A DNA stretch of 64,000 nt from Gammaproteobacteria bacterium (GCA_016218405.1 JACREE010000014.1:4988-68987); one strand, 5' to 3'; shown: positions 6,461 through 11,658, counted from the stretch's first letter. Program-made: numbers and translations. The notes: generated by a model not told the origin, from the letters alone.

Positions 6461-6548
6461 CAAAAAGACCAATGTTTGTTCAAAATAAGTGTCGAAGAAT
6501 AATTTTTGTCGTATTATACGCCTCATGTTTCTCAAGAGGTATTAAATC

Positions 6549-9500
6549 ATGACCAAACCCATCGTCATTCAAGGCGTTTCAAAACAAAAAGCTCATTTTG
6601 TAGGCTGGGTCAGCAAAACGCATTTCCACATCTTGGACATCAGACAAAATCCCACCTTTGCTTGCGTCAAACAGCTGTTGCAACCAGAAACCCTCTCACA
6701 ATCTACACTCGCGGAGCGCAAAGCCGTATTTTCTATTCTCAAGGAAATAGATCATCTGGGCCTTACCTTTCTCCAATTCGCCATACTTGCTTTAGAGGAC
6801 GATGACAGTGTCAAAGAGGTTTTAACACGGCTCGTCGCTCATGAAAATGAGGATGTCAATGCGCTTTCAACACTCACTCACGACTCTGCTTTACACATCG
6901 CGACTCTCCTCAACTTCCCAAAAACAATGGACGCACTTTTAGAATTAGGCGCTGTACCCGACATTATTAATGACGCAGGTTATCCCCCTCTGGCCTTAGC
7001 AGTTTATCTCGACTTTAGTGGCCATCTTGCCCATCCTTTATTGACACATCACAATATTGATCCGCTCATTCCATTTAATGGTGCTGATCCTTTTAGAGAA
7101 ATCCTCACCCTATCCGACCCCGTCATTGTTTCGGCTTTTTTAAACCACCCTATCGTTGGAGAAGAATTAACTGATCTTGTCGATGAAGCAGGCGGCGCCA
7201 GCGTGGTGCTCGGACAACTCTTTGAGCTTTTCCTCCTCACAAAAACCCGAGGTGACTCAGTAAGAGCACAAAATTTTCTGTCTATCTTAACTTCTTTGGT
7301 AGAAAAAGGACTGGATCCCTATGAACAATCGAATGCTGATTCGCCCAGCTTAATCATGCTCTCGATTTTTCATAAAGAGCCGCGTGTGTTTGACGCCGTT
7401 TTTATCGCAGAACGAGATATTTCTGTCTCTCGCACAAACTATCACTGCGTGGATCTTGTTCTTCAATGCGCCGATTTACCCTTCTTTAAACATATCGCAC
7501 GTACCCAAAAACCCTATCTTAATTATCTCATGCAAACTGACCCGCATTTTGCGGTCAAAGTGGCTCATTCGATGCTTGTTTATAATCATTTTAAGGCTCT
7601 CGACTGGCTATTTTTAGATTATCCAAATTTGGCACACATCGATATCAGCCCTTTGTCAAACGGAGGCACGCTCCTATTCAGCGCCGTACTTCGAGGTTTA
7701 TCTCAAAGTGTCTTGGCCCTTTGTCAACGCGGCGCCAACCCTAATATCGCCCTCACAGGTGATTATTATGGACCCGGCTCCAACAAAGTGGCTCTACCTA
7801 ACAATTTTCCAGCTCTTGTGTTTTCACCCAGCATTTATTCAACTTTTCGCGTTAAAAAAGGGGCGACTCCTTTACGCATTGCACTTTTGAATCGTGACTG
7901 GGACAATGTATTTACCCTTTTATTTTACGGCGCTAAATTTTCGTTACATGACAAAGAAGCCCTTCACCCCGTACTACTTGCACTTAGATATAAAAAAATA
8001 GAGTTGATTCGCCTCATTTTAAAAAAAGCATCACCACAACAAGAACGAAAAATATTGCTTTACTTTATCGCTAATAAAATCGCAGCTTATCGATTGGACA
8101 CAAAATTCCTTGTGTTAGAGGCCCTCAAAGCCAACCTACCTTCTTTACTTAAAAAATTAATTTCAACTCACCAAACACATCTTTACCGCGCCACAAAACG
8201 AACCAGAACAATACACTATACCGTCTTACCTCAACGTACCCACCTTTGGATTGAAAATTCAAAAGGGCGAAGTCTATTACACATCGCGCTGTTACTCACT
8301 CCACCCAAAAAAGAAAAAGAAAAAACTGCTTTCCTTAAAAACCAACACAAATGCATACAACTTTTAATAAACGAAATGAAAAAAAGAAACAGCGCTCGTT
8401 ATCAAAAATCAGTGGAAAACATTTTATTTTCGATCCACATTCATCCTCAACATACCGCCCAAATTCTCGAACTTTTAGCCCCCAAAGACCCCCTCGTCAT
8501 TTTAGCCATCCTCGATAAATTCGCCAGCCCAGGAAACACCATTGAGCGCTATTCTGTGATCAGGGAAATCATGCATGTCATTGAGCCCAGTGCATTATTA
8601 CGCCTAGCCAAACAACACGAAAAAACAAATCTAGCACAGTTTGTCACTCAGGAAATGCGTAACTCTATGCCTGTTGCTGATACTTCACCCACCACCACCT
8701 CAACTTCACCTTTAACCATTTTATCTACACCTAAAGCACAACCCAAACCTAAGCAACCTGCATCCACCTCACCCAAACAGGCTGTCGATTCAGCACCCAA
8801 AGATACCCTGTCCCTCTTTATTCAACACACAGCTGATAAGTTACTCACCTTAGCCTTACCAGCTAAAAGACCTTTTTCTCCTTTAGACAGGGCCTATTTT
8901 AATTTTTACTTTTTAAGATTGCTGAAACTCATCAGATCAACCCTTTTAACAGATAAAGATATCGTCTTTAGTAAACAAGTACCCTCTCATTATGTGAGGC
9001 ACCAACAAAAAAGAACGCTGGAGCTGTGTATTGCAAGTTTCATGTCACCCCAAACAGTGATCACAGAGGAAGAACAATCAAATATCATGAGATTTGTTAA
9101 AGAAGATTTACCTAATTTCGAACTTTTTATCCTTCATCTTAAAGAATTAAACTTTGAGGATCGTTGCTCAGAAGAAACAAAAGCCATACAAATGGCAGTG
9201 AACTTATCTACCTGCAGCGATGCCATTCTCGCCCGAACCATACTGCCTTATTTAGACGCCCTCAAAGAGGCATTGGAGATCAAAAAACTTTCTCAAACAG
9301 AATTATCTGTTTTTTTGTGCAATTATTTTATCCAGCTTGCTCCTTATCTTTCTCAGCTCAATATCAGAAGCGTCAGTTTGAAAGACACACTTCAAGCTTG
9401 GATAACACATTGCACTGCCCTCAATGAATCCCGCGCTTTTATTTTTCTGCCCGAAGAAGCCGGCTTTTTCGCACAACACAATCAAAAACGCTTCAACGGC

Positions 9501-9746
9501 ATTAACACCACATCATCTAGTCACTCTTTTCCATCTAAAACATTGCTCCCTTTAATACAGGCACTTTCAAGTTATCTTGAAACTGAATTAAAAGAAGCCG
9601 AACAACCTCTCGATGAAAAAAACACAGCATCTTCGCCTCTTTCTCTTTTCTTCCGACCTTTGCCTTTTCCCATCAAACCACCTAAAACAGAGGCATCCAG
9701 CCCTGATGCAACTTCATCGCCATCCGCAGCATTAAGCAGACCTTAA
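6549..9746 (+). CDS. large ankyrin-repeat-containing protein (1065 aa) with Pro/Ser/Thr-rich C-terminal region; candidate secreted effector
   Basis: Several ankyrin-like repeats, e.g. SALHIATLLNFPKTMDALLELGAVPDIINDAGYPPLALAV, GATPLRIALLNRDWDNVFTLLFYGAKFSLHDKEALHPVLLAL and GRSLLHIALLL. ATG at 6549 with AAGAGG 9 nt upstream. Opposite strand to the flanking prmC/prfA. Confidence 0.65.
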   Translation: MTKPIVIQGVSKQKAHFVGWVSKTHFHILDIRQNPTFACVKQLLQPETLSQSTLAERKAVFSILKEIDHLGLTFLQFAILALEDDDSVKEVLTRLVAHENEDVNALSTLTHDSALHIATLLNFPKTMDALLELGAVPDIINDAGYPPLALAVYLDFSGHLAHPLLTHHNIDPLIPFNGADPFREILTLSDPVIVSAFLNHPIVGEELTDLVDEAGGASVVLGQLFELFLLTKTRGDSVRAQNFLSILTSLVEKGLDPYEQSNADSPSLIMLSIFHKEPRVFDAVFIAERDISVSRTNYHCVDLVLQCADLPFFKHIARTQKPYLNYLMQTDPHFAVKVAHSMLVYNHFKALDWLFLDYPNLAHIDISPLSNGGTLLFSAVLRGLSQSVLALCQRGANPNIALTGDYYGPGSNKVALPNNFPALVFSPSIYSTFRVKKGATPLRIALLNRDWDNVFTLLFYGAKFSLHDKEALHPVLLALRYKKIELIRLILKKASPQQERKILLYFIANKIAAYRLDTKFLVLEALKANLPSLLKKLISTHQTHLYRATKRTRTIHYTVLPQRTHLWIENSKGRSLLHIALLLTPPKKEKEKTAFLKNQHKCIQLLINEMKKRNSARYQKSVENILFSIHIHPQHTAQILELLAPKDPLVILAILDKFASPGNTIERYSVIREIMHVIEPSALLRLAKQHEKTNLAQFVTQEMRNSMPVADTSPTTTSTSPLTILSTPKAQPKPKQPASTSPKQAVDSAPKDTLSLFIQHTADKLLTLALPAKRPFSPLDRAYFNFYFLRLLKLIRSTLLTDKDIVFSKQVPSHYVRHQQKRTLELCIASFMSPQTVITEEEQSNIMRFVKEDLPNFELFILHLKELNFEDRCSEETKAIQMAVNLSTCSDAILARTILPYLDALKEALEIKKLSQTELSVFLCNYFIQLAPYLSQLNIRSVSLKDTLQAWITHCTALNESRAFIFLPEEAGFFAQHNQKRFNGINTTSSSHSFPSKTLLPLIQALSSYLETELKEAEQPLDEKNTASSPLSLFFRPLPFPIKPPKTEASSPDATSSPSAALSRP

Positions 9747-9834
9747 CAGGAGGCAGACTTAATTTATCCTGACTATAAAAAGCTCACAACCGAACTATAC
9801 TCATCGTACTGGGTCTTTAGGATAGGAGCTTTTT

Positions 9835-10913: not shown

Positions 10914-11121
10914 ACTGAAAAGGTTCGGCTAACGAACGATCTTGATGCTTTGAAATTAAAAGGTCTTGTACAAATTCAATAGGAAGATCGGGATTATCTA
11001 GCGCACACTTCCCTATCATCGCCCAAAATTCAATTTGATGAGGGATGGTGCGACATTCAGCACGCGCTACTTTTCTAGCCTCATCATAAATGGATTCATC
11101 AATACGTATTGGAACACCCAT
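10894..11121 (-). CDS. ParD-like antitoxin
   Basis: 75 aa. IRIDESIYDEARKVARAECRTIPHQIEFWAMIGKCALDNPDLPIEF resembles the ParD-like antitoxin family (ESIY...R.I..QIE.WA..G....NPDLP). AGGTGA RBS 5 nt upstream. Overlaps the toxin start. Confidence 0.5.
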   Translation of the reverse strand: MGVPIRIDESIYDEARKVARAECRTIPHQIEFWAMIGKCALDNPDLPIEFVQDLLISKHQDRSLAEPFQFGKNDE

Positions 11122-11180
11122 AATTATTCACCTACAAATAGTTTAATTAGATACATTTGTAGTATAGCCAACACAGCTTA

Positions 11181-11642
11181 TTAACGCAAGGCCCGATCTA
11201 AATTTTCCGTTTTTTCAGCCACGAACTGAAATAAGCGTGATCGGACTGAGTCACCCCGAACAAATACACTGCCTAACTTGTCAAACAACCAAGGCAGTGT
11301 TACGGTTTTATTTTGCAAATCAGCATAGATGGCATCCATGAATTCTCGCAAACGCATCGTCACCTCACGCGAATAAGCACCTTGCGCCTTAACATTTTGC
11401 CCAGAAAAACCTGGCACATATTGATTAAATTGATTATAAAATTCCATTAACCTTTTCGGCCCAATTTGCCCAGGAAAAAAACCCGGTGATTTCGTACTAA
11501 ATTCCAACGTAAAGACTTCTAATAATTGTTTCAATCCCATATCGTAAGGTATACCAGGCGCAGATTTTATCGCCAAAAATGCGGTACGCAAGGTTTGCGC
11601 ATGCAGCTTAAGTAGTTTTACAAAATTCGTTTCAGTCGCCAT
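11181..11642 (-). CDS. hypothetical protein (153 aa), unknown function
   Basis: Internal ATG at 11642 is preceded by a strong AAGGAGAGG RBS. The longer track ORF overlaps the prfA stop. No recognisable domain. Confidence 0.45.
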   Translation of the reverse strand: MATETNFVKLLKLHAQTLRTAFLAIKSAPGIPYDMGLKQLLEVFTLEFSTKSPGFFPGQIGPKRLMEFYNQFNQYVPGFSGQNVKAQGAYSREVTMRLREFMDAIYADLQNKTVTLPWLFDKLGSVFVRGDSVRSRLFQFVAEKTENLDRALR

Positions 11643-11658
11643 TTTCCTCTCCTTGATA

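Follow-up and report, generated by a model that had tools for sequence, protein, structure and literature searches.

A probable lineage-specific islet of accessory genes between prfA and prmC in a gammaproteobacterial metagenome-assembled genome

We examined the region between prfA (encoding release factor 1, RF1) and prmC (encoding the release factor N5-glutamine methyltransferase) in a 64,000-nucleotide stretch of DNA (the window; GCA_016218405.1, JACREE010000014.1:4988-68987). The source is an NCBI metagenome-assembled genome (MAG) annotated only as 'Gammaproteobacteria bacterium', with the locus-tag prefix HY939. An open reading frame (ORF) listing and family scans place prmC 5,198 bp from prfA, with five genes between them, two of which are on the opposite strand. 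Ordered from prfA, the insert contains a gene for a 153-amino-acid orphan protein (unk153), a ParD/ParE-like pair, a gene for a YkuD L,D-transpeptidase (ldt, + strand) and a gene for a 1065-amino-acid ankyrin-repeat protein (ank, + strand). These five genes had been named in an initial annotation made from the sequence alone, and the listing and scans recovered every one of them, position and strand included. The block probably represents a lineage-specific mosaic islet of accessory genes that accumulated between prfA and prmC after the split from the nearest sampled relatives. The insert and its immediate flanks comprise the following features.

5633-6460 (-): prmC, downstream flank; TIGR03534, 277 bits (cutoff 199), with an NPPY motif
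6461-6548: divergent spacer between prmC and ank, 88 bp
6549-9746 (+): ank, 1065 amino acids; NCBI locus tag HY939_01655
9767-9843 (+): stem-loop enclosing the start of ldt
9835-10593 (+): ldt, YkuD L,D-transpeptidase of 252 amino acids; PF03734, E of 3e-13
10594-10625: convergent spacer between ldt and parE
10626-10913 (-): parE-like gene; PF15781, E of 7.7e-36
10894-11121 (-): parD-like gene, 75 amino acids; PF11903, E of 5.3e-18
11132-11189 (-): putative promoter-operator region of parDE, read from the sequence
11181-11642 (-): unk153, orphan of 153 amino acids; NCBI locus tag HY939_01675, no family match
11643-11658 (-): spacer between prfA and the orphan, 16 nt
11659-12735 (-): prfA, upstream flank; TIGR00019, 543 bits, with PCRF and RF-1 domains
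12732-13982 (-): hemA (glutamyl-tRNA reductase), first gene of the cluster; TIGR01035, 392 bits

The hemA stop and the prfA start overlap by 4 nt, and alignments of hemA with its homologues begin at the ATG at 13982. For prmC, a start at the ATG at 6460 fits the N-termini of the homologues; the ORF continues upstream to an ATG (6526) and a TTG (6535).

Loci for comparison were taken from an RF1 scan of one genome per GTDB species together with Joint Genome Institute (JGI) metagenome contigs, and the proteins of the window were located by tblastn in all 152 loci. The nearest relatives are a locus (L074) in which prfA, hemA, prs and dksA are 82%, 73%, 89% and 84% identical to those of the window, and the Rifle-aquifer MAG RIFCSPLOWO2_02_FULL_38_11 (L002, with its duplicates L075-77), in which prfA is 77% identical. 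The genes prs-lolB-hemA-prfA-prmC-dksA-hpt are collinear in both, and the gap between prfA and prmC is 19-28 bp. This gap does not exceed 250 bp in 67 of the 74 loci that contain both genes and have a prfA at least 60% identical, and the two genes are adjacent in 97 of 106 loci overall, drawn from several phyla. Homologues of the five insert genes are absent from these loci, apart from one unrelated L,D-transpeptidase paralogue in a Legionella MAG, and no locus carries any two of the cargo genes together. Given the collinear order and short gap in the relatives, we take the 5,198 bp to be a derived, lineage-specific insertion relative to the ancestral gene order, as the initial annotation had proposed. 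The genes beyond the immediate flanks are as follows.

4097-4666 (-): hpt, from the ORF list; collinear counterparts align in L002 (74%) and L074 (79%)
4663-5565 (-): dksA, 300 amino acids, with a Lys-rich N-terminal extension
13997-14533 (+): lolB, from the ORF list; collinear counterparts align in L002 (46%) and L074 (52%)
14997-15071 (+): tRNA-Gln, from a tRNA search
15104-16051 (+): prs, from the ORF list; collinear counterparts align in L002 (84%) and L074 (89%)

The hemA-prfA-hemK operon has been documented in E. coli (PMC3001078). The locus described here resembles the hemA-prfA-prmC (hemK) operon of E. coli and other Proteobacteria in that the three genes lie on one strand and share the same order. 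However, prmC here lies beyond two opposite-strand genes, at a distance of 5,198 bp, and the compact transcription unit is lost.

The prfA-prmC junction is not inviolable: elsewhere in the gammaproteobacteria it is interrupted by insertions of at least three further kinds. Several other gammaproteobacterial MAGs have PALP-led islands of 3.2-8.8 kb at this point. In one pair of loci (L026/L095) 8.8 kb encode a PALP enzyme with a MacB-type ATP-binding cassette exporter and HlyD, and in a group of three (L048/L096/L106) 3.2-3.4 kb encode a PALP enzyme, a DUF6691 protein and a Cys/Met pyridoxal phosphate-dependent enzyme. A cytochrome P460 gene occupies 0.66 kb at the same junction in another two loci (L066/L092), and several loci have no prmC within 2-10 kb downstream of prfA. 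The splitting of the operon is ordinary, common genome plasticity and has arisen independently in other gammaproteobacteria. L074, the nearest relative, carries a separate accessory insertion between prmC and dksA, a gene on the opposite strand (12025-13089, -) for a 354-amino-acid class I S-adenosylmethionine methyltransferase.

The first gene of the insert, unk153, starts 16 nt past the prfA stop codon. Since the 16-nt spacer holds a strong Shine-Dalgarno sequence, AAGGAGAGG, the orphan is probably translated from the hemA-prfA mRNA. It has probably become part of the transcription unit of hemA and prfA. Its product has no match in Pfam, NCBIfam, PADLOC or PHROGs, and a database of 5.8 billion protein clusters yielded only two homologues, 63% and 52% identical. 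One homologue (P0003, L071) follows gloB beside a mevalonate-pathway operon, and the other lies in a short unrelated contig. As both occur in other contexts, the linkage of unk153 to prfA is not conserved. An AlphaFold2 model built from the three-sequence alignment has six helices with a predicted local distance difference test score (pLDDT) of 70.6, which predicts an all-helical protein. The model and sequence have no meaningful fold or sequence match in the PDB.

The second module has the textbook layout of a type II toxin-antitoxin cassette, of the ParE/RelE superfamily, and the ParE/ParD-like assignment of the initial annotation is borne out by strong family matches. The parD-like product matches PF11903 at 65 bits (cutoff 23) and phrog_16013 with an E of 3e-23, and the parE-like product, which is 95 amino acids long from a TTG at 10913 or 91 from the ATG at 10901, matches PF15781 at 122 bits (cutoff 28). 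The antitoxin gene comes first, and the parE ATG at 10901 overlaps the parD stop by 8 nt (ATGAGTGA). Upstream of parD is a palindrome, CTACAAAT-N15-ATTTGTAG, at 11132-11162. A -10-like TATACT (11166-11161) overlaps the palindrome and is separated by a 17-nt spacer from a -35-like TTGCGT (11189-11184). In view of the autoregulation of type II toxin-antitoxin operons, the region 11132-11189 is a candidate promoter and operator of the cassette.

Homologues of the pair at 49-56% identity are found in 73 plasmid records from Piscirickettsia, Pantoea, Polaromonas, Pseudanabaena and others, spanning several phyla. The cassette resembles the PF15781/PF11903 pairs with plasmid copies in Piscirickettsia salmonis, Pantoea and Polaromonas in its family matches, upstream antitoxin, ORF overlap and palindrome. 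It differs from the plasmid copies in being chromosomal and at that level of identity, and its toxin activity is a prediction. With a G+C content (GC) of 0.36, plasmid homologues, its own promoter-like site and the palindrome, parDE is the sole module of the insert that looks mobile.

The ldt product matches PF03734 at 51 bits (cutoff 23.4), with an active-site SHGC at residue 222. An acidic tract, DNDSDDDGDEEEDYND, is located at residues 73-88, and the L,D-transpeptidase with a poly-acidic tract described in the initial annotation is thereby confirmed. The N-terminus has a hydrophobic signal or anchor ending in AHA|E, and the protein is predicted to be an exported YkuD enzyme of peptidoglycan remodelling. 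There are approximately 1,970 homologues, and the catalytic domain is 60-70% identical to L,D-transpeptidases of approximately 185 amino acids from uncultured gammaproteobacteria. Few homologues cover most of the N-terminal extension. The best two (P0006 and P0007) are 51% identical over approximately 90% of the protein. P0007, the closest full-length homologue, was found in the sample that also has the best unk153 homologue, where it lies on a different contig (L158), among orphan genes.

Ldt shares the YkuD domain, the SHGC motif and predicted export with the L,D-transpeptidases of this family in Coxiella burnetii and Legionella pneumophila (PMC11841132). Unlike those enzymes, it has an extra N-terminal extension of approximately 65 amino acids with the poly-acidic tract, shared in part with P0006 and P0007 alone. 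A domain in a Legionella sp. locus (L031) is 42% identical to Ldt. The initial annotation called the gene enhA-like, after EnhA, the Legionella enhanced-entry protein; ldt has no enhB- or enhC-like neighbours.

The start of ldt lies within a stem-loop at 9767-9843 (+). Its 18 outer pairs, CCUGACU.AUAAAAAGCUC with GAGCUUUUUAU.GUCAGG, enclose the GGAG ribosome-binding site and the AUG. The minimum free energy is -29.8 kcal/mol compared with -19.3 +/- 2.75 for shuffled sequences (z of -3.8), and none of 200 shuffles was as stable. This structure may occlude translation initiation, or it may stabilise the 3' end of the ank transcript.

The window encodes a second, unrelated L,D-transpeptidase at 28167-28895 (-), with a YkuD_2 domain (PF13645, E of 1e-67). 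Large ORFs without a Pfam domain are found both in the window (20430-22832, -, 800 amino acids) and beside the Ldt homologue on L158 (1853-5952, 811 and 527 amino acids). Orphan proteins seem to be abundant in the host lineage and its relatives.

The largest gene of the insert, ank, is an ankyrin-repeat gene of 1065 codons as the initial annotation had stated, with repeats in part of the protein only. The product matches Ank_2 at 37.8 bits (cutoff 27.3), and Ank_4, Ank_3 and Ank likewise score above their cutoffs. Ankyrin structures in the PDB match residues 71-200 and 370-497, with E down to 2e-12, and repeats are detectable only in approximately residues 58-581. A Pro/Ser/Thr-rich linker at approximately residues 708-752 is followed by an orphan helical C-terminal region with a Pro/Ser/Ala-rich tail. 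The last 35 residues are rich in Pro, Ser, Ala and Leu and the net charge over the final 30 is +2, features that are non-diagnostic for a translocation signal.

Despite exhaustive searching with phmmer against 1.84 billion representatives, no match was found for the C-terminal 480 or so residues, and the search returned generic ankyrin hits only besides the query. A word-index search found the query itself only, and Pfam returned nothing for residues 601-1065 alone. Matches in PADLOC and PHROG are confined to residues 370-497, in the ankyrin-repeat zone. With no homologue beyond generic repeats, the donor cannot be named. A single-sequence AlphaFold2 model had a pLDDT of 39 and was unusable. 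The position-specific GC of ank (0.51/0.37/0.38) is as in the neighbouring genes, and its codon usage (z of -1.2) is also ordinary for the window; the cargo genes look like genuine genes.

Ankyrin effectors of the Ank/LegA families in Legionella and Coxiella are translocated by the Dot/Icm system (see also PMC8896642). Ank resembles them in its large size, eukaryote-like ankyrin repeats, non-homologous C-terminal region and small-residue-rich C-terminus. However, it has no homology to any known effector outside the repeats. Of the ORFs examined in the window, none is a Dot/Icm gene or belongs to another type IV secretion system. By analogy with these effectors, Ank may be secreted and interact with a host.

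The composition of the insert is similar to that of its surroundings. The GC is 0.414 compared with 0.423 for the window, and the strand-symmetric tetranucleotide distance of the insert to the whole window is 0.148, where sliding 5.2-kb windows have a mean of 0.151 and 47% of them are at least as deviant. Codon usage, scored as a synonymous-codon log-likelihood against 49 window genes, gives z values of +0.3 for unk153, -0.4 for ldt and +1.4 for both parD and parE, so that the five genes range from -1.2 to +1.4. By module the GC is 0.36 for parDE, 0.465 for ldt and 0.418 for ank. The comparison of GC and codon usage with the flanks suggested by the initial annotation was therefore negative, and compositional foreignness of the insert was rejected on GC, tetranucleotides and codon usage alike.

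Signatures of mobility were also sought. Pfam identified no integrase or transposase in the insert, and there are no Rfam matches in 5400-15200. There is no tRNA at either junction, the nearest being tRNA-Gln, 3.3 kb off beyond hemA and lolB. Searches for flanking direct or inverted repeats and target-site duplications gave chance-level short matches only; the repeat families are at most 30 nt long and imperfect, and none flanks the insert. No repeats beyond chance level are common to the insert and the rest of the window.

The insert is similar to genomic islets and islands stabilised by toxin-antitoxin systems in that it is a small, lineage-specific block with a ParDE-type addiction cassette that is absent from close relatives at this locus. 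In contrast to classical genomic islands, it has no integrase or transposase, no tRNA target, no flanking direct repeats and no atypical composition.

The strongest tetranucleotide outlier lies elsewhere, at approximately 54000-61500 of the window, where the GC is 0.36-0.39. The genes in this region encode two AAA_14/DUF4143 ATPases, a Schlafen AlbA_2 + HATPase_c_4 + helix-turn-helix protein and a GNAT acetyltransferase. The case for recently acquired or defence-related DNA is better here than in the insert.

The arrangement of genes suggests how the locus may now be transcribed. On the - strand, hemA, prfA and unk153 would form one unit that possibly continues into parDE, and parDE would also have its own promoter. 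In the spacer at 10594-10625 (- strand), a weak AU-rich hairpin is followed by U8. Its minimum free energy of -10.9 kcal/mol (z of -0.9) is not significant, and a terminator scan found nothing between parE and ldt; this parE-distal hairpin is a possible terminator of the hemA-prfA-orphan-parDE unit.

Being split from prfA by 5.2 kb, including 4 kb of opposite-strand genes, prmC would no longer be efficiently co-transcribed with the gene for its substrate. The only non-coding place for a dedicated prmC promoter is the divergent spacer at 6461-6548. A perfect TATAAT on its - strand (6518-6513) and a TATTAT on its + strand (6512-6517) overlap there, and the ank ribosome-binding site AAGAGG lies at 6534-6539. 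These -10-like hexamers were found by eye, and no consensus promoter in the spacer exceeded the scan threshold because there is no good -35. The separate prmC promoter that the initial annotation placed in this spacer is plausible from the -10-like hexamer. Any read-through would be antisense across 4 kb of ldt and ank before it came to prmC, whose expression therefore most likely relies on this 88-bp spacer. The gene would most likely be expressed with dksA and hpt as a separate unit, from a promoter in the spacer shared with ank.

Considering these features together, the insert would consist of at least three functionally unrelated modules, namely the orphan unk153, the parD-parE cassette and the opposite-strand cargo of ank and ldt. 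The toxin-antitoxin cassette would be expected to stabilise the islet against loss. The GC differences among the modules and their unlinked homologues elsewhere speak for an assembly in several steps rather than one. Intermediate states of the islet were not found among the sampled loci. Candidate routes are an old and since ameliorated horizontal transfer, transfer from compositionally similar relatives, and relocation within the genome.

Several points weigh against our interpretation. No mobility gene, tRNA or repeat explains the arrival of the DNA, and relocation and acquisition cannot be told apart. The stepwise assembly draws on two homologue contexts only. The empty promoter scan in 6461-6548 and the non-significant parE-distal hairpin leave read-through to prmC possible. 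Finally, the role of Ank is conjecture; the window shows no type IV secretion genes, and structure prediction failed.

A single foreign genomic island, recently acquired as one mobile element bringing all five genes at once, would account for the absence of the block from all sampled relatives, for an addiction module of a family that occurs on plasmids, and for the lack of vertical homologues of Ank and the orphan in the loci examined. We nevertheless consider such an event unlikely. The insert is host-like in GC, tetranucleotides and codon usage while the DNA at 54-58 kb is clearly atypical, it has no integrase, transposase, flanking repeats or junction tRNA, its cargo genes are unlinked elsewhere, and its internal GC is heterogeneous (0.36 to 0.465). 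The initial annotation had called the content typical horizontally acquired cargo. This view is partly supported, by the absence of the block from relatives and the mobile look of the toxin-antitoxin cassette; the host-like composition and the lack of mobility genes do not agree with it. The same host-like composition fits a relocation within the genome, by which ldt, unk153 and possibly ank would be native to the lineage and moved by rearrangement, with only parDE foreign. The best homologue of unk153 (63%) and that of the long form of Ldt (51% over 90% of its length) both come from sample SRR30854913, on contigs of similar GC (0.42 and 0.385), suggesting a related organism with both genes at other loci. 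However, the two contigs may not share one organism, nor need either come from a relative of this host, and the 64-kb window contains no paralogues or repeats that could mediate recombination. Relocation is thus a possible but somewhat doubtful explanation.

Two further explanations were considered. In the first, the intervening genes would be ancestral and lost in the relatives, or the gene boundaries wrong; gaps at the prfA-prmC junction in other gammaproteobacteria are all that speaks for it. The gaps are filled by unrelated genes (PALP, MacB/HlyD, cytochrome P460), whereas both nearest relatives, and most loci overall, keep prfA and prmC adjacent. Nor are the prfA and prmC boundaries mis-assigned, as they agree with full-length alignments to homologues, and we regard either version of this explanation as refuted by the synteny and extremely improbable. 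The second is a chimeric join during assembly or binning; the sequence is metagenome-assembled, and Logan contigs of run SRR12113407 do break near 11671 and near 10719-10733. As to strain heterogeneity, an alternative prfA-prmC junction contig was not retrieved, the exact prfA product not being on record in the contig index. The Logan contigs, a separate assembly, nevertheless give both junctions. One contig (L001) carries hpt-dksA-prmC-ank-ldt-parE' at 100% identity and so includes the prmC|ank junction, and another (L154) carries the 3' end of prfA followed by unk153-parD-parE'. The composition is uniform across the junctions and both flanks are collinear with the relatives, which would be unexpected for a random chimera. 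An assembly artefact is very unlikely. A mosaic islet assembled at the prfA-prmC junction is the interpretation that we prefer.

A more speculative possibility, and one we judge improbable, is that Ank is an unseen secreted effector with a new C-terminal domain from a deep, uncultured gammaproteobacterial lineage, and that the insertion rewired prmC to a divergent promoter shared with ank, which would then drive release-factor methylation. If Ank were indeed a translocated effector, its architecture would be new among effectors and a hint that the lineage lives in association with a host. In a still weaker variant, unk153, given its tight coupling to prfA, may have a role connected with translation termination. 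More generally, the locus is an example, of modest significance, of how a widely conserved pairing of the genes for an enzyme and its substrate (prfA-prmC) can be broken by accessory genes at the junction. The most interesting elements are the two near-orphan proteins, the 1065-amino-acid ankyrin protein and the 153-amino-acid helical protein, in a poorly known groundwater lineage of gammaproteobacteria.

A placement of the host in the Legionellales was considered and is not established, as its prfA is 62-66% identical to that of Legionella and 63-66% identical to those of Halioglobus and Pseudomonadales loci. The sole hints of such a placement are the adjacency of prmC and dksA (as in L028 and L029) and the mevalonate operon beside the unk153 homologue.

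Other genes in the window also have unusual features. At its beginning, an ORF at 26-865 (+) encodes a protein that joins a PAAR motif to a cell-wall hydrolase domain, resembling a type VI secretion toxin. Directly after it, an ORF at 862-1446 (+) encodes a 194-amino-acid orphan that could be an immunity protein. The N-terminal extension of DksA (4663-5565, -) is approximately 150 amino acids long, Lys/Ala/Pro-rich and histone H1-like. This extension is also present in the nearest relative, L074 (13386-14285, 299 amino acids), and partly in L002.

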